Part shown: positions 1-36,270 of the stretch, piece after piece | Position numbering within the stretch: position 1 is the stretch's first letter | How the letters are laid out: every line of letters begins with the position of its first letter | Source: a virus | Taxonomy: Duplodnaviria; Caudoviricetes | Virus record (IMG/VR): IMGVR_UViG_3300044708_000034 | Coordinates: 1 to 40,034 of that record | DNA length: 40,034 nucleotides | Strand: one strand, 5' to 3' | Program-made: the position numbers and the translations under genes | The notes under the pieces: generated by a model | What the model saw: only the letters and a program-made list of their open reading frames with translations | What the model was told of the DNA's origin: nothing | The model's database searches: none

Positions 1-438
1 AATATCTATTTAAGCTTTTTAAATGCGGCGGCAGCATTAGAAATTAAGCTCGGCACGCCTGCGCTCGGTGAGTACTGGGATAAGCAGGGCGGCATCTATG
101 CAGGCATAGTGAGCGGCCGTGATGGCGCACAACCCTATATTCTGATTGCGGGTCCAGAGTTCGATGGATACACGAATTGGAATGTTGCGACGAAATGGGC
201 TCGCGAAATCAACTCCAATGGCTTCAATGATTTCACGCTGCCCTCACGAACTGAGGGGCGTCGACTCATGGATACCGTGCCGCAGTTATTCAAACAAGAA
301 TGTTATTGGCTCCGTGAGCAGCACACTGTTGTCAGCGATTATGCCTGGCTTCAGACCTTCACCAGTGGCGGCCAGCACTACTGGACCAAGACCAGCGACG
401 TTCGGGTTCGTGCCGTTCGCAGATTAATAATTCAGTAA
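1..438 (+). CDS. DGR target protein, DUF1566/Lcl C-terminal (C-type lectin-like fold); 5' truncated by the window
   Basis: Frame is open from base 1 (..PALGEYWDKQGGIYAGIV..LPSRTE..YW..AW.Q.F..G.Q....K.....VRAVRR); VR at the 3' end. Confidence 0.9.
   Translation, partial: NIYLSFLNAAAALEIKLGTPALGEYWDKQGGIYAGIVSGRDGAQPYILIAGPEFDGYTNWNVATKWAREINSNGFNDFTLPSRTEGRRLMDTVPQLFKQECYWLREQHTVVSDYAWLQTFTSGGQHYWTKTSDVRVRAVRRLIIQ
319..423 (+). repeat. DGR variable repeat (VR)
   Basis: Ungapped 105-bp alignment to 987-1091 with 18 mismatches, all at TR adenines. Confidence 0.97.
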
Positions 439-458
439 TTTAACAATTTTTTATCAGC

Positions 459-812
459 ATGGCCCTTTACACACAATTGCCAGTTTACAAAGTTGCATAC
501 GAGCTGCTGAACGTGGCCGTGGACTATGTGCAAAACATGCCACGCGCGTTCAAGGCAGCGATAGGCAGCCGCGTCCGGGATCTGTGTGTAGATATTGTGT
601 TGCTCATTCTCAAGGCTAACTGCGCGCGGAATAAGTCGCCGCATCTCGATACCTTGCTTGAGCGCAATGAAGAGCTGCAATTGCTACTACGTCTTTGCCA
701 AGACAAGCGATTCATCTCAAAAACACAATACGCCAAAGCGGTTGAATTGACGGCCAGCGTTGGACGTCAGATAAACGGATGGAGGAAACATGCGGCATCG
801 CCCGTTACTTGA
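459..812 (+). CDS. avd: DGR accessory variability determinant (Avd, four-helix bundle)
   Basis: LPVYKVAYEL..MPRAFKAAIG..LLRLCQDKRFIS..YAKAVEL..VGRQINGW; sits between target and TR. Confidence 0.9.
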   Translation: MALYTQLPVYKVAYELLNVAVDYVQNMPRAFKAAIGSRVRDLCVDIVLLILKANCARNKSPHLDTLLERNEELQLLLRLCQDKRFISKTQYAKAVELTASVGRQINGWRKHAASPVT

Positions 813-986
813 TCGTCATGGCGACCAGGTCTGCGCGACTATTGATCTGGTTGCGCCGCTGGCAAATGAAGCCACCGACATGCGCGTAGAGGATAGCGAC
901 GGCGAATGCCGTGACGGCTCCGGCGCAGTTTCCGCACTGATCGGCGACAGCCTTCGGTGTGGCGACGTGGATAGCGCAAACCAATA

Positions 987-1091
987 CAGCACACTGATGA
1001 CAGCGATTATGCCTGGAATCAGAACTTCAACAATGGCAACCAGAACAACTGGAACAAGAACAACAACAATCGGGTTCGTGCCGTTCGCAAA
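987..1091 (+). repeat. DGR template repeat (TR)
   Basis: AAC-rich copy of VR with 12 AAY codons in the target frame. Confidence 0.97.
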
Positions 1092-2214
1092 TCAATGTGC
1101 CGATGTTGGTCATGCTGATCTTTCTTTTGAAGAAGTCGTCAATGCATATTTCGATTGTCGCCAGCACAAGCGCAATACGCGCTCTGCGCTGCAGTTCGAA
1201 GCCAATCTCGAAACCAAACTAATTGAGCTTTACGACGAATTGCTGTCGGGGAATTACAGCCCTGGAAAATCAATCTGTTTCGTCATCACGCGACCGAAAC
1301 CTCGCGAAGTCTGGGCCGCCGACTTCCGTGATCGCATCGTGCACCATTTGCTGTACAACCGAATCGGGCCTCGCTTCCTTAATTCATTCATTGTCGATTC
1401 ATGCGCCTGTATCGAAGGCCGTGGCACACTGTACGCGGCAAAGCGACTGGAAGCCAAGGTGCGTAGCATCACTCAGAATTGGCAGCATCGCACGTTCTAC
1501 ATGAAATGCGACATTGCAAACTTCTTTGTCAGCATTGACAAGCCAATATTGCGCGACCTGTTGGCAGCCAAGATCGGTGAGCCATGGTGGCTATGGCTTA
1601 CTGAAACCGTATTGCTTCATGACCCGCGCCAATGCATCAAAGTGCAAAGCAGTGCTGATCGTCTTGCGTTGGTGCCAGCACACAAGAGCCTGTTCAATCA
1701 GTCGGCGAACAATGGCCTGCCGATTGGCAATCTGTCATCACAGTTTTTTGCCAACGTGTACATGAACGAACTCGATCAGTTCGTGAAGCATGTCATCGGT
1801 GCCCGTCATTACATTCGATACGTCGATGACTTCATTTTATTGCATGAAAGCCCGCAGTGGCTGAATGCAGCCAGGCTGCGGATTGAAGCGTTTCTGTTGC
1901 AGCGGTTGGCGATCAAGCTGAATCCCGCCAAAACGATAGTGCAACCAGTTGATCGCGGCATTGACTTCGTCGGCCAGGTGATCAAGCCATGGCGACGCAT
2001 CACTCGACGCCGCACTGCTCATGACGCTGTGCATCGCATCAGTACCGTAGCCGCAGATCGTATCTATGAAGTAGCAAATAGTTATTTCGGTCTGTTCCGT
2101 CAGTCAACGCGTAGTCGGGATGACCGCATTCGGTTGGCGAGAACCTTGATGCGACGCGGTTACACCATCAATTCAACATTCACCAAAACATTCAGAAAGG
2201 CTATTCAGAGGTAA
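1033..2214 (+). CDS. DGR reverse transcriptase (start uncertain; frame open from 790)
   Basis: [59 protein letters not shown]; no maturase or endonuclease tail. Confidence 0.95.
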
Positions 2215-2216
2215 GC

Positions 2217-2654
2217 ATGTCACGCGGAATCAACAAAGTAATTTTGGTCGGTCATCTGGGTGCTGATCCAGAGACCAGGTACATGCCGAGCGGCAAAGCG
2301 GTCACAAACGTTCGCATTGCAACCAGTGAAGGCTGGACTGATAAGCAAACCGGCGATAAGCAAGAGCGCACCGAATGGCACAGCGTTGTGATGTTTGAGC
2401 GACTGGCGGAGATAGGTGCGGAGTACTTGAGGAAAGGCTCGCAGGTTTATATCGAAGGGCAGCTTCGCACCCGCAAGTGGCAGGACAAAGAAGGCAAGGA
2501 TCGATACACCACCGAAGTCGTGTGTCGTGAAATGCAAATGCTTGGTGGGAATCGTGGTGAGCAAGGCCAGCAACGGCAACAGCAACCAGCATCGACCCGA
2601 ACTACAGAACCGCCTGCTGGCGACGACGGGTTCGATGACGATATTCCCTTTTGA
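2217..2654 (+). CDS. ssb: Single-stranded DNA-binding protein
   Basis: [38 protein letters not shown]; acidic tail DDDIPF. Confidence 0.97.
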
Positions 2655-2662
2655 GCACCAGC

Positions 2663-2827
2663 ATGTCACGCGCTCAATTCATCATCGTAATGTCGATCGC
2701 TGCAGTGTTGCTGTATGCACTGCTTGCCAATTGGCTGATACGTTTATGGATGGCCGACACATGCGATGACACTGGGCGCGTGCGGCTCAATCAACAAACG
2801 TATTCGTGCGAAGCACAGGACAGATAA
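2663..2827 (+). CDS. Small membrane protein, 54 aa (not in ORF track)
   Basis: MSRAQFIIVMSIAAVLLYALLANWLIRLWMADTC..; ATG 8 nt after the ssb stop; one hydrophobic helix. Confidence 0.55.
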   Translation: MSRAQFIIVMSIAAVLLYALLANWLIRLWMADTCDDTGRVRLNQQTYSCEAQDR

Positions 2828-2847
2828 GTAATGACATTCAACAGAAC

Positions 2848-2917
2848 ATTGCGAGGGGGAACGGTTGGCTCAACTCTACCCATGCTGAAAGGTGGGCGGG
2901 CCGTTTCCTCTCGCAAT
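2848..2917 (+). other. Long intergenic stem-loop, possible structured RNA
   Basis: ATTGCGAGGGGGAACGG pairs with CCGTTTCCTCTCGCAAT (17 bp, 2 G-U) plus an inner stem. Confidence 0.6.
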
Positions 2918-2949
2918 TTATTTTCACCAGAGCATAAGGAAGGCGGATC

Positions 2950-3600
2950 ATGAAAGCGCATCCAATCCTATTCAGCGCGCCAATGATTCACGCATTGCTC
3001 GAAGGTCGTAAGACCCAGACGCGGCGCATAATTAAAGGGAAAAATATTTTCATCAGTGCTAGCGGCGCGGTGATGGACATGGCCGACGGCCACATTAAAG
3101 AAATCAAGTTTCCGTATGGCGAACAAGGCGGCTATTTGTGGGTGCGTGAGACATGGTATTGCGATCACTACAAAGTTCAGAGGGGATTATCATTTAAGGA
3201 AGTACCCGATGCTCGTGAATTGCTTTATTACCGGGCAACAGATTGCGATAAGAATGGCTCATGTTACACGGGGTTTTCAGGTGAAACGATGGATGTGCCT
3301 TGGAATTCATCTATTCACATGCCTCGCTGGGCTTCAAGGCTCACGCTCAAGATGACCGGCATGAAGGTAGAGCAACTGCAGGACATCAGCGAAGCGGATG
3401 CGAAGGCGGAAGGCGTTCAGGTTCGCGACATTTTTTATCCGGATGAATCACGAACAGATTATAGCTATTGCCATCAATTCAGGTTGCTGTGGGAATCGAT
3501 CAACGGTGAAGGCTCATGGGATTTGAATCCCTGGGTATGGGTGCCTGAGTTCGAAGTCATCAAACAGAACATCGACGCGGTGTTGAAGGCGGCAGCATGA
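2950..3600 (+). CDS. Conserved phage protein, ASCH/PUA-like
   Basis: PILFSAPMIHALLEGRKTQTRR..LWVRETW..SIHMPRWASRLTL..NPWVWV; SD AAGGAAGG upstream. Confidence 0.85.
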   Translation: MKAHPILFSAPMIHALLEGRKTQTRRIIKGKNIFISASGAVMDMADGHIKEIKFPYGEQGGYLWVRETWYCDHYKVQRGLSFKEVPDARELLYYRATDCDKNGSCYTGFSGETMDVPWNSSIHMPRWASRLTLKMTGMKVEQLQDISEADAKAEGVQVRDIFYPDESRTDYSYCHQFRLLWESINGEGSWDLNPWVWVPEFEVIKQNIDAVLKAAA

Positions 3601-3839
3601 GCGACTTATTTCCCGAAACAATCGGCGATGCGTCGCTTGACGATCAACTCAAAGAGATTGATCGAGAACTTGCAATGCGGGAACGCTTATACCCGCAATG
3701 GGTAGCACGCGGCACGCTCAGGCAGTCAACGGCTGATCGACAGATCGCAATCATGAAGGCTGTGCACGAAACAGTTCGCAAGGCTCGCCAAGAAAAACAG
3801 ATGACCAGCGCACTGACTGGCAAGAGGATTGATCAATGA
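3597..3839 (+). CDS. Phage hypothetical protein
   Basis: ATGA overlaps at both ends; RELAMRERLYPQWV motif. Confidence 0.8.
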   Translation: MSDLFPETIGDASLDDQLKEIDRELAMRERLYPQWVARGTLRQSTADRQIAIMKAVHETVRKARQEKQMTSALTGKRIDQ

Positions 3840-4138
3840 GCAACATGTCATTTATTGCGCAGTCGAAAATCGCATGGCGACCGAACGGCGATCGTCAGGC
3901 GACCAACGAAGAAATTCAAATCGGTTGCTTGCAACGCATAGCAATCGCCAGTGAGATACTGGTTGATCGGTTGACGACTCTCACAAGTAGCTATGATCAA
4001 TTGAAGCGCGATCTTGAACATTACAAAAACCGCAACGATGAAAACTATGAGAGGTACCAAAAAGAAAAACGTCGTGCTGCGGCTTTGCGTGGCCACATCG
4101 CTAGAATGAAGCGATCGCTGAGTGGGCCGAATGCATGA
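3836..4138 (+). CDS. Hypothetical coiled-coil protein
   Basis: ATGA coupling at both ends. Confidence 0.75.
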   Translation: MSNMSFIAQSKIAWRPNGDRQATNEEIQIGCLQRIAIASEILVDRLTTLTSSYDQLKRDLEHYKNRNDENYERYQKEKRRAAALRGHIARMKRSLSGPNA

Positions 4139-5015
4139 GTTGGCTCTTTTCGCAGGCGCTGGTGGTGGAATACTCGGTGGAAAAATTCTCGGGTGGCGAA
4201 CAGTGTGCGCAGTTGAATGTGATGCTTACGCAGCAGCCGTACTTGCGCAACGACAAAACGATGGATTACTCAAAGCCTTTCCTATTTGGTCTGACGTGCG
4301 AACGTTTGACGGCAGACCATGGTGCGGCATTGTTGACGTCATATCTTGCGGCTTTCCATGTCAGGACATCAGCGTCGCAGGGGGGGGTGCGGGCATTACC
4401 GGCTCGCGCTCGGGCTTGTGGAAAGAGTCAGCCCGTATCATTGGCGAAGTTCGACCGAATTTCGTGTACGTGGAAAACAGCCCAGCAATCCTTGTTCGAG
4501 GACTCGACGTCGTGCTCAGTGACTTGGCCGCGCTCGGGTATGACTGTCGATGGACAGTGCTGGGAGCTGCCGATGTCGGTGCGTGGCATCAACGCGACCG
4601 CTTCTGGCTTGTTGCAAACATTGGTGGCAGACGATGCAGTGAATCGCAAAGCGGGGAAGTTCAACAGCCGAGGCGAACCGAAGCTGAGTGCACAAGTAAT
4701 GCTCGTGCCGACATTAACTCGCGCCGATGCGACGGGAGGTCCTGGCAGTCAAGGTCGTCAAGGCGGGATGAGCTTGCGGACAGCAATTCAAAAGATGCCG
4801 ACACTGACGGCACAAGATGCGAAGAACAATGGCGCACCGAGTCAAATGGAACGCAATACAAAGCCATTGAACGCGGAGATTGGTGGGCCACTGAACCCGG
4901 AGTGGTGCGAATGGTTCATGGGCTTCCCCATAGGGTGGACAGAATTAAAGCCTTGGGCAATGCACAAGTTCCACTCTGCGCCGCAACAGCATGGCGAATG
5001 CTTACGGGAGCATGA
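4131..5015 (+). CDS. C5 cytosine DNA methyltransferase, catalytic (alpha) chain
   Basis: Motif I LFAGAGG, IV GFPCQDIS, VI VENSP, VIII HQRDRFW, X RIKALGNAQVP; motif IX not in this frame. Confidence 0.9.
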   Translation: MHELALFAGAGGGILGGKILGWRTVCAVECDAYAAAVLAQRQNDGLLKAFPIWSDVRTFDGRPWCGIVDVISCGFPCQDISVAGGGAGITGSRSGLWKESARIIGEVRPNFVYVENSPAILVRGLDVVLSDLAALGYDCRWTVLGAADVGAWHQRDRFWLVANIGGRRCSESQSGEVQQPRRTEAECTSNARADINSRRCDGRSWQSRSSRRDELADSNSKDADTDGTRCEEQWRTESNGTQYKAIERGDWWATEPGVVRMVHGLPHRVDRIKALGNAQVPLCAATAWRMLTGA

Positions 5016-5022
5016 AGCATGA
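4135..5022 (+). CDS. Alternative-frame MTase partner (beta-like chain with motif IX and TRD-like repeats)
   Basis: LNPEWCEWFMGFPIGWT; three PTL.A.DA repeats; ATGA-coupled to both neighbours. Confidence 0.75.
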   Translation: MSWLFSQALVVEYSVEKFSGGEQCAQLNVMLTQQPYLRNDKTMDYSKPFLFGLTCERLTADHGAALLTSYLAAFHVRTSASQGGVRALPARARACGKSQPVSLAKFDRISCTWKTAQQSLFEDSTSCSVTWPRSGMTVDGQCWELPMSVRGINATASGLLQTLVADDAVNRKAGKFNSRGEPKLSAQVMLVPTLTRADATGGPGSQGRQGGMSLRTAIQKMPTLTAQDAKNNGAPSQMERNTKPLNAEIGGPLNPEWCEWFMGFPIGWTELKPWAMHKFHSAPQQHGECLREHEA

Positions 5023-5312
5023 CCATCCAAACAGCTCCGCGTACGCGTACAACTGACGCTCAGCAAGAGATGACGACCTGCGCGCAATGCCACGCCATGT
5101 TTCTGGCACGCAAGCCGGGGCAGTACTTCTGCAAAGCGTCGTGCCGTGCCGCGTACCAGCGCGAAACCGGGTTACAAGGTCAGGTCGCGGGCGTTACACG
5201 ACTGCTGCGAGGCGTCAGCGTTGTGATTCATTTCCCGGACGGACCAGCGGCAGAGAAAGCGATTGCGCTCACCAAACGTCAAACCGTGAGCATCGTTCGG
5301 GAACCAGAATGA
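5019..5312 (+). CDS. Small zinc-finger protein
   Basis: CAQC..F.......FCKASCR; ATGA coupling. Confidence 0.75.
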   Translation: MTIQTAPRTRTTDAQQEMTTCAQCHAMFLARKPGQYFCKASCRAAYQRETGLQGQVAGVTRLLRGVSVVIHFPDGPAAEKAIALTKRQTVSIVREPE

Positions 5313-5542
5313 GCCGGAAACAGGCAACAATCACCTGGCTCCCCTCTATCGGCTCCCCCGATCCAGATGCTATGGTAGAGTTGATTCGTGAAAAACTAAT
5401 ACAGAGGTTACAGGGGCATGACTCCGGCTGCCGCATATCTGCGATCAAGCAAGGATCGCAACGACGTGAGCCTATCCGCTCAATTGCTGGAGCTGAACAA
5501 TCTGGCAGTGCAGCGCGGGCTGACGATACAACAAACCTATGA
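5309..5542 (+). CDS. Small ORF overlapping the integrase start (possible directionality factor)
   Basis: ATGA overlap at 5309-5312; function from position only. Confidence 0.4.
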   Translation: MSRKQATITWLPSIGSPDPDAMVELIREKLIQRLQGHDSGCRISAIKQGSQRREPIRSIAGAEQSGSAARADDTTNL

Positions 5543-6920
5543 AGACGCCGTGCAATCCGGATCTACAGATGATCGCCCTGCTTTCAGAGAATTGATTGCA
5601 GACATAAAGAACGCCAATCGCGGTTGGTCTCATCTGCTGGTATTCGATACATCACGCATTGCACGCGGTAGATACATCGCACAGGCGTTCCGTCATGAGT
5701 GCCGCCGGCGTGGTGTTGAGTTGATCATCGCCAAGATGCCCGAGACGGATCCCATTTCAAATGTGATTCTTGAATCCGTGCTCGAAGCGATGGACGAAGT
5801 GCACTCGATCATGTCGCGCGAGAAAGGCCTCGCGGGCATGCGTGAGAATGTGCGACGTGGTTGGCGTGCCGGCGGGCGTGCGCCGTATGGATACCAGTTA
5901 CAGCATGAAGCAACCGGCACAATTCGCGATGGCAAGCCGGTAATGAAATCGAAGCTGATCGCGGTTGCTGGCATGGATCACTTGGCGAAGTTTCTTAAAT
6001 TGCGCGCCAGTGGAATACCGCGTGTTGAAGCGCGTAAGCGCTGCAGCATCGACTTACCGCCTGCAACACTGGTTGACATGGAATGGAACGCGCTCGTTTA
6101 TGCGGGGCACACGGTTTGGAATCGACACAACGCAAAGAAAGCCCGCGGGAGTGGCAAGGCAAAGCGGCGTGATCGATCGGAGTGGGTGATACAACGCGAC
6201 ACGCATCCGGCAATGATTAGTGATGCACAGGCTGAATCTATTATTGCGCAGTTAGAAACCAGCATGATTGGTCAGGCAGTGAGTGCGGCGAAAGCATCTG
6301 GAAGCGATTACCTATTGTCTGGGCTGCTGCAAACTGAAGATGGCCAGCTATGGGTTGGTGCCGGCATCCATTACCGATTGAAGCCGCGCGATGGAAGAAG
6401 CGGCAAGCGGATCAAGCGTGATGAATTAGAGCGCGGCGTGCTTGTCAAGCTGCGTGAGGATCTGCGCTCCGAATCATTGATCAACGCCATCACTGCCAAA
6501 TCAAAACAGTTAGTGCAATTGAATGATCCAGCAGAGCCGGTACGCAATGAGATTGAGAAACTGAAAAAGAAAAAAGACCGTGCCGCGATGCTCGCATTGC
6601 AACAGAATGATGAAGTGTATGTGCGCTTGGTGGAAGATATGAGCAGGCAGATTGAATCGCTGGAACGCGAAGCAAATGCTTTGGATGCAGAACGTCGAGC
6701 GGGTAATGCGATGGCAGAAATTACACCATCGATCGTTCGCGAAATGCTGTTGAGTTTGGATAGTGACCGCGCCCTGGTCACTTCAATGATTCAGCGAATC
6801 GTATTGACTCGTGAATTAACAGGCCGTATTGAATACGGCCTAGAAATGGCGTCCCCAAGGAGTGCCGACAGGTGGGCCGCGCCTGCTATGATCCGGGAAT
6901 TCAAATTAACCGGTACTTAA
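5418..6920 (+). CDS. Large serine recombinase (integrase)
   Basis: AYLRSS catalytic Ser, DTSRIARG, GGRAPYGY, HPAMIS, YLLSGLL, C-terminal coiled coil. Confidence 0.95.
   Translation: MTPAAAYLRSSKDRNDVSLSAQLLELNNLAVQRGLTIQQTYEDAVQSGSTDDRPAFRELIADIKNANRGWSHLLVFDTSRIARGRYIAQAFRHECRRRGVELIIAKMPETDPISNVILESVLEAMDEVHSIMSREKGLAGMRENVRRGWRAGGRAPYGYQLQHEATGTIRDGKPVMKSKLIAVAGMDHLAKFLKLRASGIPRVEARKRCSIDLPPATLVDMEWNALVYAGHTVWNRHNAKKARGSGKAKRRDRSEWVIQRDTHPAMISDAQAESIIAQLETSMIGQAVSAAKASGSDYLLSGLLQTEDGQLWVGAGIHYRLKPRDGRSGKRIKRDELERGVLVKLREDLRSESLINAITAKSKQLVQLNDPAEPVRNEIEKLKKKKDRAAMLALQQNDEVYVRLVEDMSRQIESLEREANALDAERRAGNAMAEITPSIVREMLLSLDSDRALVTSMIQRIVLTRELTGRIEYGLEMASPRSADRWAAPAMIREFKLTGT
6836..6879. other. 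Putative attP within the integrase gene, core matching a tRNA-Glu 3' end
   Basis: 6847-6860 on the minus strand reads CCTTGGGGACGCCA; dyad CGGCC..CC-AA-GG..GGCCG centred on 6857-6858. Confidence 0.7.
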
Positions 6921-6921
6921 A

Positions 6922-7113
6922 ATGAAACAAACAAGGATTCATGCCGATGACGACGAAACGGCCGAAGTGCTTACCGTCTCCGAATTGATCGAATTATTGA
7001 GATCGATGCCGCAAGATGCGGAAGTGTGGCACCAAGGTTGCGATTGCCAAGGCACTGCGGATGGCGTAAAACTTCAGGACGACGGCACGGTGCTGATTAC
7101 ACGCAGCAATTGA
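6922..7113 (+). CDS. Small acidic hypothetical protein
   Basis: LTVSELIELLRSMPQDAEV, a common phage motif. Confidence 0.7.
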   Translation: MKQTRIHADDDETAEVLTVSELIELLRSMPQDAEVWHQGCDCQGTADGVKLQDDGTVLITRSN

Positions 7114-7115
7114 TC

Positions 7116-7343
7116 ATGGACGACGCGCCCTACTCAGCCAAAATCAATATTGAATACGAGCAATGGTTGTCCATTGAGTGCACGACGTGCCATTACTCCG
7201 TGAATATGCGCATGACAGACATATCAGCCGAAGATCGCGACAAGCTGGCCGAAGGTCGCAGACGGTTTAGGTGCAGCAAGTGCGGGGCTCGGCAGGTATC
7301 CACTAGGCGGTATTGGCAACCGCCGGAACCTCCTAAAACCTGA
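7116..7343 (+). CDS. Small zinc-ribbon protein
   Basis: CTTC..RFRCSKCGAR; ATG 2 nt after the previous stop. Confidence 0.65.
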   Translation: MDDAPYSAKINIEYEQWLSIECTTCHYSVNMRMTDISAEDRDKLAEGRRRFRCSKCGARQVSTRRYWQPPEPPKT

Positions 7344-7926
7344 TCCCAATCCGGCCAAAGACCGAATACCCGCGATAACCCAGATCCGGATTATTTCGGA
7401 CGACATCGATGCCCAAGCGGAACGGGCCAAGGTCGCGGTCGATGAATCCGCCGTATCTCTTATTAATGCGGTCATAGAGAGCGCCCATTGCCCATTTCAG
7501 TTGGCGCTGCTGGGCTGGCATCTGAACTGGAATGTCAATCCCGCCGACAATCTCACCGTCCGATGATGTAGCGATCACCCTGTGCGTATCGTCTTTCATT
7601 GCGACAAGGCCAAGGTCGATATGCACCGGCTCGCAATTGGTCGCGGCATTCAGCGCGGTTGTTGCCTTTGGCTTGGGCTTTACGGTCAACGTCACCGCGC
7701 GCTCAAGCTTCGCGCCTGGCAGCTCCTTCACGGCATCTTTGATTGATTCCGGTACCGGCGCGTCGGGCACGCGTTCCAGCACGTGTGCACCATCTGGCAA
7801 GATGATGGAAGGCGCAGCGGTTTCAACATGCACGGCAACTGGATGCCATAGTGCCCAGCCAATTAACAGGCCAAGCAATACGCAAGCCGAGAGGTGCATC
7901 CAACGCGGAATGATTGGAATGTTCAT
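7333..7926 (-). CDS. Membrane-anchored lysis-cassette protein (spanin position)
   Basis: N-terminal TM helix; C-terminal amphipathic beta strands ending GIRF; last late gene. Confidence 0.7.
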   Translation of the reverse strand: MNIPIIPRWMHLSACVLLGLLIGWALWHPVAVHVETAAPSIILPDGAHVLERVPDAPVPESIKDAVKELPGAKLERAVTLTVKPKPKATTALNAATNCEPVHIDLGLVAMKDDTHRVIATSSDGEIVGGIDIPVQMPAQQRQLKWAMGALYDRINKRYGGFIDRDLGPFRLGIDVVRNNPDLGYRGYSVFGRIGIRF

Positions 7927-8540
7927 AACGCACCGCCTTGATCCGCAATAGGTGCGTCATCGACCACCTTGTCATGCCAGCGTGTATCAATCTTCATGCT
8001 GAGTGATCCGTCGTTATTGCTATGTCGCTCGCCGCACTTTTCGCACGACAGGGTTTCTTGATAGGCACGGCCTTGTTTGTTTGGCCTGACTTGAGGCCAT
8101 TTGCCGCTATGCTTGCAAGTAAGGCAAACGTAATGCGGTTCTATCTCAACATGAGTACCGGGTGGGCGCGTAGTCCAACCTTCAGCGGATGGCTGCGATT
8201 CACTTTTTATTTCATAGAAAGCGAACGGAAAGATTTCATGTTTAATTGCTGGCTTAGCATCATTTCCCAATAGATACGCGGAACAGTACCACGCACCGTG
8301 CATCCCAATGCCGTCTGGATACGCTAAACCGGCACCGCATTTGCACACGGCATAGGCAGAGAAAGACAGTTCATATACGGTAAAATGATTCTTGCCTAAA
8401 GCAATATCACTTAAACGTTGTTTAGTGCGTTCAGCTTCGGCTTTACATTCTTGGTTGAAGGCTTCAAGCGCTGCGTTCTGCCCGCAATCTCTGGCGCGTG
8501 CTTCCGCCAAAGCGATTAATAATTCATTCAGCTTACTCAT
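7923..8540 (-). CDS. Cys-rich hypothetical protein within the lysis cassette
   Basis: CKCG, WYCS, CLTC, CEKC; ATGA overlaps. Confidence 0.75.
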   Translation of the reverse strand: MSKLNELLIALAEARARDCGQNAALEAFNQECKAEAERTKQRLSDIALGKNHFTVYELSFSAYAVCKCGAGLAYPDGIGMHGAWYCSAYLLGNDAKPAIKHEIFPFAFYEIKSESQPSAEGWTTRPPGTHVEIEPHYVCLTCKHSGKWPQVRPNKQGRAYQETLSCEKCGERHSNNDGSLSMKIDTRWHDKVVDDAPIADQGGAL

Positions 8541-8905
8541 TTCGGCACCCGCGGCGTTGCTGAAATCTTAGACTCCAGATCCGGGAAGTACTTGTATAAG
8601 AGTCGGGTACCGATCAAGTACACCATCGGCGCGAATAGCGTGCCGGCAGCGAGTCCCCATGCGAAGCCCAAGAGAGTTGGCCACAACAATACGGTAATAG
8701 TCAGACCGGTCATTGCGGTAGTGATGTACCAAACGCGCCATGGGCCGTTTGGAATGCTTGGTGTGTTGATCACCACGACCTTCACCAACTGAGTTACACC
8801 AATTGCCGTCAGCGTGCCGATGACGACCGCATCAAACTGCGTATGCGCAAGCAGCGTTGCGAACGCCTCTGCGAGAAAATTGAAAATCGATTGTGCTGTG
8901 CTCAT
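8537..8905 (-). CDS. Putative holin (about 3 TM segments)
   Basis: Hydrophobic segments; ATG at 8905 overlaps the endolysin stop. Confidence 0.65.
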   Translation of the reverse strand: MSTAQSIFNFLAEAFATLLAHTQFDAVVIGTLTAIGVTQLVKVVVINTPSIPNGPWRVWYITTAMTGLTITVLLWPTLLGFAWGLAAGTLFAPMVYLIGTRLLYKYFPDLESKISATPRVPK

Positions 8906-10122: not shown

Positions 10123-10542
10123 TTACACCAGCTTTTTGCGGAGTTGAATTTTCAGCTTGCGAATCGCATCAAGGTTGTCGCGCGCAACCATGTTGTCGGG
10201 TTCTGCAATAACCTCATCGAGTGCGCGTAGGTGTTTTGCATCGAGCAGTTGCAACTGCGCAAGCGCCTGCGCTTTATCTTGTTGCTTCTTTATGATGTCT
10301 GGCTTGATCTGCCAGCGCTTCGTGTCAGTTATCCATTCGTGATCGTCATTTGGTTGCGGCGGCTGATAGTCAACCACGGTGCCGGTTTCAATATCAACGC
10401 TATACGCTAAATGATCAATCACGCCATCGATGGCGCCGCAACCATCAGGGATATTCTTCTTCAGCAATTCTTCATCGCTTGCCGAAATAGTCATTCCGTT
10501 GAAAATCCCTGTGGCTGGATCGTACAAACTGCAAGTTTTCAT
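10123..10542 (-). CDS. Tail fibre assembly-like protein
   Basis: PPQPNDDHEW....KRW motif; follows the tail tip gene. Confidence 0.65.
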   Translation of the reverse strand: MKTCSLYDPATGIFNGMTISASDEELLKKNIPDGCGAIDGVIDHLAYSVDIETGTVVDYQPPQPNDDHEWITDTKRWQIKPDIIKKQQDKAQALAQLQLLDAKHLRALDEVIAEPDNMVARDNLDAIRKLKIQLRKKLV

Positions 10543-13500
10543 GCCTTGATTGCCTCGCCTTTGACCACAATGTTTTTGATGTCTACAAAGACTGGTGTTC
10601 CGGTCGCTGCGGATTTTGCATTCGCGTAGTAAGTCTGCGTAGTGCCCGCAGCCAATGAAAAAGTATATTCACGTGCAATTGAATAGATGCTGCTGGCACT
10701 GGTATTGTTATAAGCGACTGTGTCGTTGTTGTTTGTACCCGTCGATGATGTATCAATAGCAACATCCAAACTAACCGGATTTGTTGAACCGCTTGCCGGT
10801 AATGTCGTTGTTGCTGTTACGGTTACAACAATTTTGGTATTAAACGCATAGGGCCCCAATGTTACGGATCCCAGGGCAACACGCGTAACGGCACTTGTAA
10901 TCTGAGAGACCAGCGACACTGTCGAAAACACGACGTCTGTTGCTGCATTCGCAGCCAACTGAATCGTATCAACCACTGAAAGATTCGTGGTCGGCCCATA
11001 GCGCAGCGAGTTACATCCGGAGCCAACACCGTTGAAGCTGGAATCCATAAACAGCGTCAGTGAACTGATGGATACCGTTCGAATCGAAACGCCATCCTTC
11101 CAATAAGTCACTGTGCTGCCATCATAAGTGATGGCCATCACTGTCGATGTCACATAGGTGCCGCCCAATGCGGAGCCAACCTCCGACCCGGCCTCATAGA
11201 TTCGCAGCGTTCCTGAGCTGTCGCAGTACCACGCATAATCAAGCGATGTGTAACTTTGATCTGTAAGCGGATCGGTATTCAAGCCAACCATGAAAGCGAG
11301 GTTTGTTTGATTTGCTTTGAATGTCACATGGCATTGCTGATATCCGATAACCGAATAACAATCACTGTCCCATGCGCCTGACCCGCCAATCTTCTGAATG
11401 CTCGCATCAGATACAACGCAATTGCCCCGCGTTAGATAGGGCGACGGCGTAACCATTCCAGTAGGGCCAAAAAACACATTGCGTGCCGACCCATTGGGAG
11501 TATAGAAACTGGAATCGAGTGCGAATGTTTTGTTCTTGTCAAGAACACTGCGCTGCATCGTCCCGTCTTTGAAATACATCACCCGCTGACCGTCGTATTC
11601 GATGCGCAGTACGGTTGTAGTGGTGTATGTGCCAGCTGTTGCAGCGCTTGATCCGTTCTCATAGATGCTGAGATTTCCAGCTGCGTCACAGTACCACGCA
11701 TAATCAAGCGATGTGTAACTTTGATCAGTCGTCGGATCTGAATTCAGGCCGATCATCAACTCGCTATTCGTCTGGTTTGCACTGAATGAAACCGCGCACC
11801 CGCTGGAGAACGTTTGCAGGCTGTAGCAATCCGAATCCCATGCCGATGATCCGGAGGCGTTCTTGAATATTGAATTTCCAATGACTGCGCATGCGCCACG
11901 TGGGATCAAGGTCAATCCGTTCGCTGTCGTGATCTGCGAACTGCCAGCCGTCACAGTATATGAGTAGGCCGTGAGCGATCCCATTGATTCAAGCCCGCCA
12001 CCAAAGATGTTAAAACTCTGGAACTTGAAGTAGAGAGTCTGTCCGATCATTCCAGGATCGAACGGCATGCGGAAGATTGAACCATCAAGGCGAATGAATC
12101 GGGTGGCACTGGAATGCGAACCTGAAATGCTTCCATATTTGCCGCGCCGCAAATAGGTCAAGTTGTAAGCACCAGCACCTGTCAGCGTCGCTGTGCTATA
12201 TGACATGATCTCGCCATCAACATAGATCAGCGTATTCATGTTGTCAGCGTCGGCCGTTGATCCTGAGCTCATGACTGCAGCGGTATTATTGAGCTGAATA
12301 CTCAACGTGTGCGTGCTGTCAGGGTCGCTGCCACTGGCAAGCGATGCAGTCAATGTTCCATAGCGCGCACCACTATATATCGTTCCAACGCTGACATAGT
12401 TGGTATTGTCGCGGCTCATCAATACGCGACAGCCACCCCAATTGCTGGACGCGCTGGGCCCGCCTACCGCAATCCAGATTTCATAACCACCACCGGGATC
12501 AACCAGCAAAGCTGGTGCGGTAATAATGTATGGTGCCTGCACGCTACCTGGTGCAGTCGCATAGTTTGCGTAGTAACCCTGCTCCGCTTGGAAGTTATAG
12601 ACAGGCGCACCGGCAGGGCCGAGCGGCAGTTCTTCAGCGGTGATGGTTATCTCATCTTCTTCGGAATCTTCGACCTCCGTAATGCGCACACGCTGATTCA
12701 CTAATCCAAGGCCGCTATCATTAAGCGCCACAATGTCCATCGGCTCAAGCAAGCAGTAATCGACGCGCACCTTGAATTGATACGCACATCGGTAATACAA
12801 ATTGCGCTGCAGCAGTATCTGCGCAACGGCGCGCGCAACGACACCCGTTGTGATCATGTGTGCGGTCTTCGTTTGCGAAACACGCATACCGTTTAGCGAT
12901 ATGTCCTGTGCGTCGCTGGCCTCCATGATCGCGGTGTTATAGTTGTTGGCGCGATTCAGGTATTCCAGTCGCACCACATTGCGCATGTCCGATTGCGCTT
13001 TGCGTGATACCTGTACCGGGTCGTCGCCTTCCTCGTAGATGTAATCATCATCGCCGAAAGTGAATAGCGGCGTCATGTTTGGCGTGTAGGTTGCGCCATT
13101 GCCAGTGACTGAAGCATCAGCCAGCGGCACAATATTCAAAACGCCAGCCGATTCGAATGCCTGGCTGTTTGTTGTTTCGAGCAGCTCTTTGATGAAGTCC
13201 ATTGCGGGCCGCTGCGATGTTTCAATGGGGCTGATGAAAAATCCCATCGCCTTGCAATAATTTTGGTAGTTCGTCAGTGAACCCAGCGCATTGAAGTTGC
13301 AACCATGATTCGCATCAGTGCAATAGTCAGTGAGGATGGCGGACGGCTCTGCATCGAAAATGCCATTGAGGCCATACTGCTGCAGCCCGTTAATCTCAAA
13401 GCTCAAGTTTGGCAGCGCGGGCGAGTCTTTCAGATCGAATGCACCCGATGCCAGATATGCCGTGTGATCATACGGTATGGCCTGCGTCGGAAAGTTCGTC

Positions 13501-13967
13501 GTCAAGTAAGACCAGGTGGTCTGGCCGCCAGTGCCATAGAACAGCGTCAATCCAAGCGCGCCGATGGTAGTGATGGTTTTATCGGCCCATACATTGCCGA
13601 TGCCGGTAATACTTCCCTCGCATAAGAATCCAAGCAGTGATGCGCTATAGGTGAATGATGATTGAGCGCCGCCACCACCACCGCCACCTTTACCACCACC
13701 ACTACTTGATGATGGCGTTGCTTTGAAATTAGCGTACCAGCCCAAATTCCATGCCAGACGTTGCTGCCCATAGATGAGCGGAACGGGATCACCATAGATG
13801 CTTTTCTGAACTTCGATGCCGTTGTAACGGCTTTCCGCCGGAGTATCTTTTTTGTCCTTAAATATTGCCTTGTAGAGAGTCTTTCCGAGAAACGCGCCGA
13901 CCGGGTCGCCACTGAAAATATTCTGAACCCAGTTATTCGGGTCATTTGGCTTACCAAAGAACCCCAT
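10539..13967 (-). CDS. Tail tip / host-specificity protein (J-like) with duplicated C-terminal beta domain
   Basis: YGDPVPLIYG, LCEGSI..IGNVWAD, LPNLSFE, LEPMDIV, LRRGKYGS; TAATG overlap with the NlpC gene. Confidence 0.88.
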   Translation of the reverse strand: MGFFGKPNDPNNWVQNIFSGDPVGAFLGKTLYKAIFKDKKDTPAESRYNGIEVQKSIYGDPVPLIYGQQRLAWNLGWYANFKATPSSSSGGGKGGGGGGGAQSSFTYSASLLGFLCEGSITGIGNVWADKTITTIGALGLTLFYGTGGQTTWSYLTTNFPTQAIPYDHTAYLASGAFDLKDSPALPNLSFEINGLQQYGLNGIFDAEPSAILTDYCTDANHGCNFNALGSLTNYQNYCKAMGFFISPIETSQRPAMDFIKELLETTNSQAFESAGVLNIVPLADASVTGNGATYTPNMTPLFTFGDDDYIYEEGDDPVQVSRKAQSDMRNVVRLEYLNRANNYNTAIMEASDAQDISLNGMRVSQTKTAHMITTGVVARAVAQILLQRNLYYRCAYQFKVRVDYCLLEPMDIVALNDSGLGLVNQRVRITEVEDSEEDEITITAEELPLGPAGAPVYNFQAEQGYYANYATAPGSVQAPYIITAPALLVDPGGGYEIWIAVGGPSASSNWGGCRVLMSRDNTNYVSVGTIYSGARYGTLTASLASGSDPDSTHTLSIQLNNTAAVMSSGSTADADNMNTLIYVDGEIMSYSTATLTGAGAYNLTYLRRGKYGSISGSHSSATRFIRLDGSIFRMPFDPGMIGQTLYFKFQSFNIFGGGLESMGSLTAYSYTVTAGSSQITTANGLTLIPRGACAVIGNSIFKNASGSSAWDSDCYSLQTFSSGCAVSFSANQTNSELMIGLNSDPTTDQSYTSLDYAWYCDAAGNLSIYENGSSAATAGTYTTTTVLRIEYDGQRVMYFKDGTMQRSVLDKNKTFALDSSFYTPNGSARNVFFGPTGMVTPSPYLTRGNCVVSDASIQKIGGSGAWDSDCYSVIGYQQCHVTFKANQTNLAFMVGLNTDPLTDQSYTSLDYAWYCDSSGTLRIYEAGSEVGSALGGTYVTSTVMAITYDGSTVTYWKDGVSIRTVSISSLTLFMDSSFNGVGSGCNSLRYGPTTNLSVVDTIQLAANAATDVVFSTVSLVSQITSAVTRVALGSVTLGPYAFNTKIVVTVTATTTLPASGSTNPVSLDVAIDTSSTGTNNNDTVAYNNTSASSIYSIAREYTFSLAAGTTQTYYANAKSAATGTPVFVDIKNIVVKGEAIKA
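11224..11726. repeat. 38-bp exact direct repeat (11224-11261 and 11689-11726) in the duplicated domains
   Basis: CAGTACCACGCATAATCAAGCGATGTGTAACTTTGATC occurs twice. Confidence 0.9.
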
Positions 13968-14410
13968 TAGAAAAGACTCCAAACACTATCAAGCCGATGT
14001 TCATGCGTGCGCATTTCGCAAAGCTCAACGTTTCCATGCGGCTTGTAAGCGTGAATCATCATTTCATGATCAACAATGATTGCGCCGTGCGCAGCCGTTC
14101 TGCCAAACCGATAGAGTGCGATGTCACCAGGCTTTGCATCTGCCAATTCAATGCGATGACTGTATTGCTCCATGCCAGCCATGTAGCGTTCTTCGTCACG
14201 ATGCAGATACCATTCCGCCTCGTATGGGCGCGGGTCGAAGTCAGTGGGCACCATCCCGACCGCTTGATAGACGCGCACCAGAATCATTGCGCAATCAACA
14301 CCAATACCCTTGATGTCGCCAAGGTGATGGTATGGAGTACTGAGCCATGACCTTGCCTCATCGACAATGCGCATGCGCAATATCGCGTCTTCGTTATCGT
14401 TAAGGCACAT
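13967..14410 (-). CDS. NlpC/P60 tail-associated peptidase
   Basis: EARSWLSTPYHH..GVDCA..PGDIALYRFGR..HGAI..IHA. Confidence 0.9.
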   Translation of the reverse strand: MCLNDNEDAILRMRIVDEARSWLSTPYHHLGDIKGIGVDCAMILVRVYQAVGMVPTDFDPRPYEAEWYLHRDEERYMAGMEQYSHRIELADAKPGDIALYRFGRTAAHGAIIVDHEMMIHAYKPHGNVELCEMRTHEHRLDSVWSLF

Positions 14411-25716: not shown

Positions 25717-26031
25717 CTAAGAACGAACAGATAGCACCGCTCGCAATGACGGTGCCTTGAATGAATTGGTGGTGCTGCATGTCACTGCGACACCGTAATC
25801 ACAGCCATCGGTGCGACCGATGACGGGGACAATGATCATGGTTCCGGTCGTATCAATCGACGCGCTACCGTTAGCCAGCAAATTGGGGCTTGCATCAGTT
25901 CCAAATGCCGTATCGAACGCAATCGTAGGCGTGCCAGACAACGTTTCACCCGTGGCGAGATCGTCACTGAAGTCATAAATCAGCTGACGCTTTTCGCCTG
26001 GGCGAATTGGTTTTTTAAATCGTTCTGTCAT
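25717..26031 (-). CDS. Small beta-rich virion adaptor-like protein
   Basis: KKPIRPGEK..YDFSDDLATGETL..G.DY.VAVTCSTT. Confidence 0.7.
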   Translation of the reverse strand: MTERFKKPIRPGEKRQLIYDFSDDLATGETLSGTPTIAFDTAFGTDASPNLLANGSASIDTTGTMIIVPVIGRTDGCDYGVAVTCSTTNSFKAPSLRAVLSVRS

Positions 26032-27179
26032 AGCGTCACTGTGAAATCTCGACGCCTTAGCGTCACAGAAAAATCAGACGGAACAAGCGACACCGTGTAA
26101 TCACGCTTTGGCGCGCGAATTGTCAGTGCACTTGCGAAATACAACGCGACCGTTGTCAATGCGCCACTGGCGATGACTGCACTTTGTGCAGCACCGAACA
26201 GTTTGATAGAAGTACTGAGCGCGCCTGCTGCAGCACTCACTGATTGAGCGCCACCACCAAGCGGTATGCCTGTTGTCAGGGTTCCAATCGCGGTGACGAT
26301 TGACTGTGCTGCACCTACTAACGCCGCTGCATTCGATTGCAGTGATCCGGTTGCAATAACAGTATCCGATGCGTTACCGCCAAGCTTGATGCCAGTCGAT
26401 AGCGCACCCGACGCGGCAGCTTGATCAGATGCAGCACCTAACAATTGAATCGCAGTTGTCAGACCGCCGGTTGCCGTTGCGATCGCTTGAGCTGCACCGC
26501 TCAGTAATGCGCCGCCACTCATGCTTCCGGTCGCGATCGCTGTATCAATTGCAGATCCGGCAAGTTGAATCTGCGTGGTCAAGCTACCGACTGCACTGGC
26601 AATTGCTTGTGCAGCGCCTTGCAGTTTGATCAATGTCGTCAGCGATCCAGATGCAAGCGCCGCACCCTGAGCCGCACCAGATAACGGGATGCCTGTTAAC
26701 AGTTGACCTGTTGCCGTTACAACATCGGCAGCATTACCAGCAAGGGCAGCAGCGGTGCCGCCAAGTGATCCAGTTGCAACCACCGTGTCGCTGGCTGTGC
26801 CGGCAAGCAGTATTGCTGTGGTCAATGCACCCGATGCCGAAGCACTGGCTATTGCATTGACTGCCAATTTAATTGCAGTACTTAAGTTAGCTGTTGCAGT
26901 TGCAACATCCTGAGCATTGCCTCCAAGAGCAATCCCAGTTGTTAATGATCCAGATGCAACTGAGTTATCAGTCGCAGCACCAGCCATCTGAATGGCCGTC
27001 GTCAATACGCCAGCAGCAGTAACAACGTCAATGGCCGCGCCAGCTAATGCAGCAGAACCGCCAGTAACCACTGGGAAAAACCATTCGTTGAAAATGGTTT
27101 GCTGCGTGGCTGCATCACCAACGCCCGGCAAGAATGACTTGCGCAGGATCATCGAGCGGATGGCATTACCCTGTCTCAT
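26028..27179 (-). CDS. Ala/Gly/Thr-rich fibre-like protein with 15 repeats of about 20 aa
   Basis: xLxGxAxxxxxAxGxLTTxI repeats. Confidence 0.8.
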   Translation of the reverse strand: MRQGNAIRSMILRKSFLPGVGDAATQQTIFNEWFFPVVTGGSAALAGAAIDVVTAAGVLTTAIQMAGAATDNSVASGSLTTGIALGGNAQDVATATANLSTAIKLAVNAIASASASGALTTAILLAGTASDTVVATGSLGGTAAALAGNAADVVTATGQLLTGIPLSGAAQGAALASGSLTTLIKLQGAAQAIASAVGSLTTQIQLAGSAIDTAIATGSMSGGALLSGAAQAIATATGGLTTAIQLLGAASDQAAASGALSTGIKLGGNASDTVIATGSLQSNAAALVGAAQSIVTAIGTLTTGIPLGGGAQSVSAAAGALSTSIKLFGAAQSAVIASGALTTVALYFASALTIRAPKRDYTVSLVPSDFSVTLRRRDFTVTL

Positions 27180-28778: not shown

Positions 28779-28781
28779 GGA

Positions 28782-29594
28782 TTACCCCTGTGTTTCTGTA
28801 TATGACCCAATCAGATTGCTGCTCGTCGTCGTATTAGGAACGATCACAATGAAAGGGACTGCGCCGTTATATAAGCGTGGGAATCCGCTTGTCAGCGCAT
28901 CAATCGCATTGGGTATCAGTGCGCCAGGCAGTTCAAGTGCTGCCAGCATACGATAGGCGACTGCATTGATAGTGCCCGTAGTCCATGCAGTGCCGAATGT
29001 GAACGTCTGCACTGATCGCACACCAGTGTCGCCAGCTTGCAATCCAACCGGGAAGAATGCGCCTGCAATTGTCGCTGTTGCAGTGGGCGCAATTGCGAAT
29101 GATGCTGATCGCGATCCTGTGCCTGCTTGATTGGTATACGCCATCGTGAGAGTCGCCGCCGTGGCGGAGGCCGCAGCACTAGTCTCAATACCGATGAGGA
29201 CGCCGTCACCATTGGTGCTACCTGTTTTATCGCGAGCAGGCCATGTCGGTGTGGTCGGGCTTTGCGCCGACGTGCTATTGACTGTGAGCTGATTGCACCA
29301 GAGACGGTCCAGCAACCAAACTTGGCATGCCTGTGTGGCAGCTAATGATAGCCGCGACAAATACGCATTACCGCTACCCGGATCGACATGCGGAATGGCA
29401 CCATTGGGAATCGTGCTGCTAGAAGATAGAATAGCACCATTCAATGTTGCATCGTATGAACCTGCACCAGGCAGGCCAGCGACTGGCCAATACGATTGCG
29501 GTCGTCCCGCCACCAATGTACCGCTGAGCGCCTTAGCAATTGCTATGGGCGACTGCATCCCAGCCAGGGCCGCATCAAGTGTGCTGATCGTCAT
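28782..29594 (-). CDS. Virion structural hypothetical protein
   Basis: LLDRLW, YTNQAGTGSR, LQAGDTGVRSV motifs. Confidence 0.75.
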   Translation of the reverse strand: MTISTLDAALAGMQSPIAIAKALSGTLVAGRPQSYWPVAGLPGAGSYDATLNGAILSSSSTIPNGAIPHVDPGSGNAYLSRLSLAATQACQVWLLDRLWCNQLTVNSTSAQSPTTPTWPARDKTGSTNGDGVLIGIETSAAASATAATLTMAYTNQAGTGSRSASFAIAPTATATIAGAFFPVGLQAGDTGVRSVQTFTFGTAWTTGTINAVAYRMLAALELPGALIPNAIDALTSGFPRLYNGAVPFIVIVPNTTTSSNLIGSYTETQG

Positions 29595-29599
29595 TGTGA

Positions 29600-35985: not shown

Positions 35986-36270
35986 TTAAGCCGTGCGCCT
36001 TGCACCTGAATCGCGATCCACGTCGTCTTTGCTACGCCACATCAGCACGCGCCCATTTCGCTTCTTTGCATCGGCGTGAAACATGTGTTGTTTTGGTGTG
36101 AGATCGCCCGTTGCTGATTTGATTTCAATTGGTGACCAGGCACCGCGCCAAAGGCCGAGCCAGTCACATGGCTCATCCAACTTGTGAAGAAACCACCCGA
36201 TTGCGCGCGCGTATTCAACCAGCTCTGGTTCATTGTCATCGCGCTTGGCTGCATATCGCGGCATGCTCAT
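35986..36270 (-). CDS. VRR-NUC-like PD-(D/E)xK nuclease
   Basis: AAKRDDNE..CDWL..IEIKS..LTPKQ..FH. Confidence 0.75.
   Translation of the reverse strand: MSMPRYAAKRDDNEPELVEYARAIGWFLHKLDEPCDWLGLWRGAWSPIEIKSATGDLTPKQHMFHADAKKRNGRVLMWRSKDDVDRDSGARRTA

Follow-up and report, generated by a model that had tools for sequence, protein, structure and literature searches.

The experimentally tested phage diversity-generating retroelement (DGR), that of BPP-1, diversifies a host-attachment protein (PMC8008677), and the elements closest to the one considered here have been described in several other settings. Wu 2018, in the parts of the article available, defined a category d (CLec2) of DGRs with DUF1566 targets, about half of which are short single-domain proteins, and reported multiple, non-adjacent targets in prophages as well as the lack of the GC-rich inverted repeat from most DGRs (PMC5758913). 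Clade 3 of Roux 2021, with its target cluster PC_00009, is described in the accessible text as consisting of proteobacterial, often prophage-encoded, Legionella-related DGRs whose targets are uncharacterised, and the corresponding part of the supplement classes PC_00009 as non-structural/unknown with 15.8% predicted structural (PMC8144416); Benler 2021, as far as the available text goes, linked a non-structural DGR target to phage-host conflict (PMC8008677). For the Burkholderia cenocepacia phage Magia (NC_070954.1), the sections of the genome paper at hand name the short lectin-fold proteins gp47 and gp57 as potential targets and propose adaptation or host-range change alone (PMC7883833). Here we analyze a DGR located at the left end of a linear 40,034-nucleotide contig of a soil bacterial virus, a probable siphovirus of the Caudoviricetes (IMG/VR record IMGVR_UViG_3300044708_000034; the entire record, estimated to be about 80% complete, is hereafter the window). 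This element belongs to a large clade of DGRs that occupy the early arm of proteobacterial temperate phages, a layout that is widespread and in part already published, and its lectin-fold target very probably plays a non-virion role.

Judging from the sequence, the element is a DGR by its pair of variable repeat (VR) and template repeat (TR), its reverse transcriptase (RT), its Avd protein, the lectin-type VR and the features resembling an initiation of mutagenic homing (IMH) site, and it is not a tropism switch of the BPP-1 type. The VR (319-423) and the TR (987-1091), both on the plus strand, align without gaps at an offset of 668. Within TR 987-1088, 17 of the 36 adenines are replaced in the VR (6 by C, 5 by T and 6 by G), with an additional change of AAA to AGA, so that over the whole repeat 18 of 39 adenines and none of the 66 other positions differ; the probability that all 18 mismatches fall on adenines by chance is 8e-10. 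The 12 AAY codons of the TR are all recoded in the VR, and the GAT and GAC codons at 328 and 331 are likewise altered. The adenine-only pattern that had been read from this sequence in the original prediction thus reproduces in full, and since all 12 AAY codons are changed, so does the estimate of about 1e14 variants (15^12 = 1.3e14). The GC-rich, IMH-like end of the VR (403-420) is constant, and the two repeats part ways after approximately positions 428 and 1096. No second VR was detected within the contig, where the next best match in an adenine-wildcard search covers 34 of 66 positions, and a lectin profile run over the contig matches only the target and the TR; the absence of a VR from the tail genes accordingly holds for the sequenced part of the genome, 20% of which lies outside the contig.

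Both avd and RT were described earlier as intact, and the profile matches bear this out. The avd accessory gene (459-812, plus strand) matches Pfam bAvd with 60 bits (cut-off 40) and phrog_3206, and scores under the NCBIfam Avd cut-off (60.9 vs 80). The RT gene (790-2214, plus strand) has a stop-free frame with the core starting from about 1120, retains the LPIGNLSSQ and YVDD motifs (the latter at 1819), and matches RVT_1 with 55 bits and phrog_1423 with an E-value of 7e-111. VR, TR, avd and RT are present, but the description of the DGR as complete is overstated because the 5' part of the target and probably also a second target lie beyond the contig.

The gene order, the adenine-specific mutagenesis, the AAC-rich TR, the C-terminal C-type lectin VR and the GC-rich start of the IMH are all shared with BPP-1 (mtd-avd-TR-brt). 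Unlike this element, BPP-1 has a single target, a tail protein with a CLec1 VR, and a GC-rich inverted repeat after the IMH, and the Bordetella phage RT listed among the matches is only about 30% identical to the RT encoded here. The contrast with BPP-1 that was drawn previously is real but not new, because the literature already contains short DUF1566 targets as well as prophage targets that are non-structural. Much closer is Magia, whose RT is 63.5% identical and whose element shows the same target(s)-avd-TR-RT order, there between the immunity repressor and the integrase; our adenine-wildcard scan found three VRs in this phage. The present element fits with Magia-type DGRs in which the RT is about 60-70% identical, a structured RT-15 RNA precedes the TR and avd directly follows the target. 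Magia differs in being a myophage with a tyrosine integrase and targets of 120-155 amino acids, whereas the window encodes a serine integrase and a target that is likely about 250 amino acids long. With category d of Wu 2018, the window shares the overlap of the VR with the DUF1566 (Lcl_C) domain, which scores slightly below gathering here and is consistent with the predicted fold; the parts of that article at hand are silent on an early-operon position and on the fusion, the TR-spanning RT frame and the 8-bp element that are described below. The resemblance to clade 3 and PC_00009 follows from the clade description, and the accessible text gives neither genomic position nor function. The distal target of the Bacteroides phage Quimbyvirus is likewise distant from the structural module and oriented against it; according to the available text, the Quimbyvirus DGR additionally hits a structural gene and its RT is frameshifted (PMC8008677), whereas no structural target was found here.

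The target gene (1-438, plus strand) is truncated at its 5' end by the contig boundary and encodes a domain that matches Pfam Lcl_C with an E-value of 3e-7 (31.1 bits, just under the gathering threshold of 34.9). A structure model with a predicted local distance difference test (pLDDT) score of 95 shows a C-type lectin fold with the VR at the C-terminus, and the best structural match of this model is the C-terminal domain of Legionella Lcl (8q4e; E-value 4.6e-6, TM 0.64, 20% identical), which is also the nearest solved fold. The target is thus predicted to be a C-type lectin of the Lcl/DUF1566 type. Legionella Lcl, as described in the available text, is an extracellular glycosaminoglycan adhesin in which this domain resides on a collagen-like protein (PMC11162425), whereas no export-signal pattern was found in the targets of this clade. 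The target open reading frames (ORFs) of the relatives, 173 of 177 of which match the lectin profile, have a median length of 181 amino acids from the first possible start; among the 173, none has a Kyte-Doolittle 19-mer of 1.9 or above and none has a lipobox pattern.

Genomic position in the relatives carries most of the argument on function. Searches with the RT yielded 462 stretches in IMG/VR viral contigs and 377 in GTDB genomes, and the best 80 of each were kept; the best 80 of the 377 GTDB matches come mostly from betaproteobacteria of many genera, and the RTs of cultured phages are about 59-64% identical to that of the window. The adenine-wildcard scan covered the window and 84 further loci, L077 being too short to include, and detected two VR targets in 56 entries, three in 16, four in 2, one in 9 and none in 2. 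Where the sequence reaches 2.5 kb or more upstream of the RT, which is the case in 66 loci, 2-4 VRs are present in 63, a single VR in 2 and none in L020. All 179 VR matches are on the RT strand. A CI-like gene is present in 35 loci. One of these is without a VR; among the remaining 34, there are 33 in which the co-oriented repressor precedes all VRs, with the CI-like labels transferred to clusters from one representative each. A tyrosine integrase follows downstream on the same strand in 30 relative loci, and five annotated isolates have an identical early-arm layout. The strand argument put forward in the original prediction, namely that the cassette is co-oriented with ssb, a methyltransferase-like gene and the integrase and opposite to the head and tail genes, is correct for the window but weak when taken alone: tail or baseplate genes are on the opposite strand in 8 of the 13 relatives with a labelled virion gene, and head genes are on the DGR strand in the remaining five (L025, L028, L050, L051 and L064). 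Two of these loci, L025 and L051, are Mu-like, with a late activator as well as a transposase or Gam in the vicinity; given their Mu-type early genes, the DGR in them still precedes the late genes. Two loci are likely to hold decayed or swapped elements, L020, where an RT is present and no VR was detected in 21 kb, and L071, the VRs of which have 14-15 non-adenine mismatches to the TR. By a crude motif-based classification, the targets of entries L001-L085 fall into "long" and "short" lectin types; long-then-short is the commonest tandem order (29 of 70 pairs), and the target gene nearest avd belongs to the short type in 60 of 80 entries.

In the window, the plus-strand arm comprises the target, avd, TR, RT, ssb (2217-2654), a phrog_874 gene, a gene for a DNA methyltransferase-like protein (4135-5022; phrog_1008, E-value 3e-26) and, near the end of the arm, a large serine integrase (5418-6920), and the minus strand carries the lysis, tail, head, terminase and replication genes. 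At the opposite end of the contig, 39900-40034 on the plus strand encodes the start of an XRE-type helix-turn-helix protein, likely cI (HTH_31, E-value 0.004, below gathering), which is divergent from a small minus-strand gene (39089-39337) that may be cro-like by its position alone. We searched for a terminal repeat that would close the contig and found none, and circular closure was rejected on this ground. Because the helix-turn-helix gene starts at the far end and diverges from the replication arm, the missing DNA likely spans the interval from cI to the 5' end of the target; cI likely heads an arm that resumes at base 1 beyond some 10 kb of missing DNA, a link across the gap that we infer. 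An arrangement of this kind resembles the lambdoid leftward early operon and likely places the DGR in a probable repressor-controlled early arm. Of the two genes expected to bracket such an element, the integrase is seen downstream and the cI-like start is found at the opposite contig end. An attempt to extend the contig leftward failed: in about 66% of a soil metagenome run that is possibly the source of the contig (run X1), the sole covering contig begins at base 15.

The same run contains a 123-nucleotide contig, at a depth of 3, that aligns with TR 987-1088 with 15 differences. The 10 differences that were listed are all at adenines, 9 of them are unlike those in the VR at 319-423, and the flanks are not those of this VR. 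All of the 116 VR segments taken from relatives differ from this TR by at least 12 non-adenine mismatches. Most simply, the 123-nucleotide contig is a second target of this template, belonging to either the missing arm or a strain nearly identical to this one. As regards possible ongoing retrohoming, the contigs of this run contain the second, differently mutated VR, and no alternative allele of the first VR was seen in contigs, which drop rare variants. The target count for this phage is one in the window, and a second according to the 123-nucleotide contig.

The truncated target likely has an additional domain beyond the contig end. Its closest homologues, P0001 (72% identical over residues 108-251) and P0002 (70%), are each about 250 amino acids long and align from the first target residue in the window, including the helix that closes their N-terminal domain of about 105 residues. 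Target residues 2-17 form a helix that matches the end of this N-terminal domain, characterized by a CGTxxCxxG motif, and P0001 and P0002 cluster with the lectin core of the window with tree support of 0.999. From these similarities, the missing N-terminus is likely to be a CGTxxCxxG domain, which would make the target a two-domain protein of about 250 amino acids. Four such fusions were found (P0001, P0002, P0036 and L090), of which the L090 fusion was examined in its DGR context. The L090 fusion is an adenine-mutated target (its VR has changes at 19 of 37 adenines and 1 non-adenine change), its gene is located directly 5' of an exonuclease VIII gene, and the L090 RT is the sister of the RT in the window (support 0.97). 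Scans of DNA collections seeded with single proteins for close relatives of the target produced none in viral contigs and two weak matches in metagenomes. The domain is absent from the targets of Magia and the other targets in L001-L085, from the ORFs of L001-L080 and from L121-L200, that is, from about 165 other loci, so the fusion is rare. In L055, a target ORF (7965-8873) continues the reading frame of a DUF551 domain upstream of it, which may represent a further early-domain fusion or two genes sharing a frame.

As a free protein, the CGTxxCxxG domain is far more common, with 574 representatives at an E-value of 1e-3 or lower and a median length of 148 amino acids among the best 150. Of these 150, 145 have CG[TS]xxC and 116 have a third cysteine, and the conserved Cys and His residues suggest metal binding. 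The family has no match in Pfam and no sequence match in the PDB; its PHROGs matches are limited to phrog_889 and phrog_30739 (37 and 36 of 115 members), both of unknown function. Although the domain is modelled with a pLDDT of 91, no Foldseek match with an E-value of 0.001 or lower was obtained in the PDB or BFVD, the best VIA match has a Z of 5.2 and falls among helical bundles, and Atlas contains only hypothetical viral clusters; these absent matches fall short of proving a new fold. A BFVD row annotated as "RDF protein" (E-value 1.8) was rejected as a chance match, and a tblastn search of cultured phages gave no match. Of 10 stand-alone loci, 3 have the gene for the free domain next to RecE/RecT, exonuclease or integrase genes and one has it beside nucleotide and nicotinamide adenine dinucleotide genes, and no tail family was found among the 90 of 125 neighbouring ORFs that were scanned. 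Other phages thus encode the probable N-terminal domain of the target as a stand-alone protein, and it is likely no virion anchor. Members of this family (P0013 family; L088-L118), with a CGTxxCxxGxC motif and similarity to phrog_889, are often present in multiple copies per genome (L098, L102, L103 and L115).

The region between avd and the TR contains a structured RNA that had been missed in the earlier reading of this sequence, RT-15 (796-986, plus strand; Rfam RF03018, 165.9 bits vs a gathering threshold of 82). The RNA is full-length, fills the gap between avd and the TR, and ends exactly where the TR starts; it is also annotated in phage Cruim01. In the portion of Weinberg 2017 consulted, RT motifs are only speculated to belong to retrons or DGRs (PMC5737381). 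In this clade, RT-15 makes up the 5' portion of the RNA of the DGR.

The stop-free RT frame extends from 790 through RT-15 and the TR, with in-frame ATG codons at 790, 880, 995, 1007 and 1031, so that the true start is uncertain. The length of the spacer between TR and RT equals 1 modulo 3 in 64 of 69 distinct viral loci, which represent 8 lengths (8 loci were without the anchor motif), and an ATG is found within the spacer in only 2 of those 64. The RT frame is free of stops over RT-15, TR and spacer in 50 of the 69 viral loci, compared with 1 of 69 in each of the other frames. In the genome set, of which 63 of 80 loci were usable and which may overlap with the viral set, the spacer phase is conserved in 62 of 63 loci with 10 lengths, and the RT frame is open in 46 of 63 vs 0 and 0. 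Of the 41 loci that possess the motif, moreover, 37 have the AUG within RT-15 (position 880 in the window) in phase with the RT. Frame composition and common ancestry account for part of the openness of the RT frame but not for the conserved spacer phase. The conserved phase, the open frame and the rarity of ATG codons after the TR, taken together, suggest that the RT is likely translated from upstream, through the TR in a shifted frame, and hence through its own template RNA. The legend of Figure 4 in Wu 2018, within the available text, states that the TR is not translated in vivo (PMC5758913), and a search of mostly non-subscription literature found no paper that treats RT-15 as a DGR RNA or describes translation of the RT through the TR in this clade.

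The 3' flank of the VR is also unusual. Where BPP-1 has its GC hairpin, the window has an AT-rich element with 8-bp periodicity (431-450, plus strand), and no GC hairpin was detected after this VR (z 0.16); among 127 VR flanks of the clade, just 1 has a hairpin below -5 kcal/mol. TT[CTG]A repeated at 8 bp occurs in 108 of 132 distinct VR flanks, compared with a mean of 2.4 and a maximum of 8 in shuffled sequences, and spacings of 7 and 9 bp occur in 14 and 16 flanks, respectively. A related motif follows 93 of 127 VRs and none of the TRs. The 8-bp periodic element may be a target-recognition signal.

What the diversified lectin binds has to be judged from these observations. The original prediction held that the target is a lectin-fold protein made early and not a tail fibre, and acts as an intracellular binder with an anti-defence, takeover or exclusion role. 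The location of VRs downstream of the repressor in 33 of 34 loci, the small size of the targets and the lack of an anchor speak strongly for the first part; as the target is found among early and not tail genes, it likely acts inside the infected cell. For the second part, we put at even chances that the target is an intracellular binder that can be retargeted to a rapidly changing host protein, with a component of anti-phage defence as the most likely ligand; defence is favoured because several paralogues with 1e14 faces each would be justified only by a partner that changes fast. By analogy with BPP-1, Avd and RT would copy the TR from RNA with errors at adenines, and the cDNA would replace the VR. 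The DGR genes would be expressed on infection or induction along with the recombination, ssb, methyltransferase and integrase genes, and a single template could supply each of two or more targets with as many as about 1e14 binding faces. The fused lectin may direct the N-terminal cysteine-motif domain to new partners, or may itself gain valency from it, and progeny carrying a variant that neutralizes the local host factor would be selected.

Several observations weigh against this interpretation. The ligand, which would be a protein, the cytoplasmic location and the expression of the target are all inferred, and general Pfam and PHROGs scans identified no known anti-defence gene beside the cassette in the window. 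The relatives include duplicates and close kin, so that their counts do not represent independent events, and the second VR comes from one depth-3 contig of the likely source sample, where a near-identical strain could have supplied it. The target's own N-terminus lies off the contig, the fusion being deduced from the shared helix, the 70-72% identity and the tree, and one stand-alone gene for the N-terminal domain (L089) is located about 2.7 kb from the terminase gene on the same strand. The closest structure to the target is a domain of a secreted Legionella adhesin, and P0165, a protein of 459 amino acids that looks fibre-like by eye and is one of only two longer proteins with this lectin found in the search range of 441-2000 amino acids, ends in the same lectin type. 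A search of mostly non-subscription literature found no paper on the function of these targets, and the consulted parts of papers on cultured relatives (PMC12860723; bioRxiv 10.1101/2024.05.07.591244) mention neither a DGR, nor reverse transcriptase, nor mass spectrometry.

The early-arm evidence applies equally to a binder of a host housekeeping or regulatory protein, such as a protease, RNA polymerase, a nuclease or a division protein, that diversification would keep fitted to the proteins of various host strains and that would widen the post-entry host range or tune the choice between lysis and lysogeny. Lambda CIII, Gam and Kil are early proteins that bind host proteins of this kind. The neighbouring genes for recombination and replication support, and the spread of close RTs over many betaproteobacterial genera, are compatible with such a role; slow-changing host proteins, though, would not be expected to require about 1e14 variants in 2-4 paralogues, and we consider this explanation rather unlikely.

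A prophage sensor or exclusion factor that is made in the lysogen and binds proteins of superinfecting phages is, in our judgement, unlikely too. DGR-diversified antigen sensors have been proposed for multicellular bacteria (PMC10907252, in the part of the text available), several targets per element would suit a sensor repertoire, and the fused domain could serve as an effector. Against this, the targets are in an arm that would be expected to be silenced by the CI-like repressor, a promoter and terminator scan of 1-7600 showed nothing above chance level, including no internal promoter, and no NACHT, MoxR or known effector partner was present among the scanned neighbours.

The targets might instead be accessory adhesins that are made early, dock onto the virion or are released at lysis, and bind host-surface ligands as Mtd does. 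The match of the fold to an adhesin domain and the fibre-like P0165 with the same type of lectin are in line with this proposal; the suggestion of host-range change in the Magia paper also agrees, and the accessible text of Roux 2021 leaves room for uncharacterised structural proteins. Yet the targets span phages with baseplates and sheaths, this probable siphovirus and Mu-like phages with different tails, their N-termini are short and variable without a shared anchor, the lambdoid loci have no VR match on the tail-gene strand, and the present phage has large tail and decoration proteins of its own, all of which makes an adhesin distinctly improbable. Least credible, and very unlikely, is a selfish mobile cassette in a permissive accessory region with targets of little function: the cassette is found in very different phage backbones, and target number and N-termini vary, but the target frames are intact with near-invariant scaffold residues, and 63 of 66 loci keep at least two targets, some of them several kilobases away in the same arm.

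Elsewhere in the window, several features on the minus strand deserve mention. Between the head-morphogenesis and prohead-protease genes (25717-30274) are 4-5 genes, including those for a fibre or decoration protein resembling Gp80, a repeat protein rich in Ala/Thr/Gly (26028-27179) and a 532-amino-acid protein with an immunoglobulin-like end; their products are possible head decorations or fibres. The 1147-amino-acid tail protein encoded at 10539-13982 is of the Rcc01698 (gene-transfer-agent-like) type, and its gene has an internal direct repeat of 139 nucleotides (11185-11323 and 11650-11788, 76%). In the replication arm, 36267-37037 encodes a phage protein ending in a C-terminal FtsK-gamma domain, and short tandem GTCTG-like units inside the replication initiator gene (38241-38295), which encode DQTRP repeats, are possible origin iterons.

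Short DUF1566 targets, multiple targets, absent hairpins, non-structural prophage targets and the Magia DGR have all been published, as the available portions of the respective papers attest. New here are the probable fusion to the CGTxxCxxG domain, a second VR from this template, an RT frame that is open through the TR and RT-15 across the clade, and an 8-bp AT motif in place of the hairpin. The RT frame through the TR and the 8-bp element point to variant modes of RT expression and target recognition, and the fusion gives a first entry point other than the lectin itself, through a so far unstudied family that comprises at least 574 clusters and has no clear structural counterpart. In its most specific form, which we advance only tentatively, our hypothesis is that proteobacterial temperate phages run an intracellular, antibody-like lectin library against host immune proteins, here joined to a cysteine-motif early protein as a retargetable effector, and that translation of the RT through the template couples mutagenesis to induction. 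Because cultured members exist (Magia, vB_Sb_QDWS, vB_E192a, Cruim01 and Haboob), the question is directly testable. This large clade appears to direct hypermutation at small early proteins, and if the targets bind defence proteins, such hypermutation would amount to adaptive phage counter-immunity, with the VRs as baits for finding host defences.

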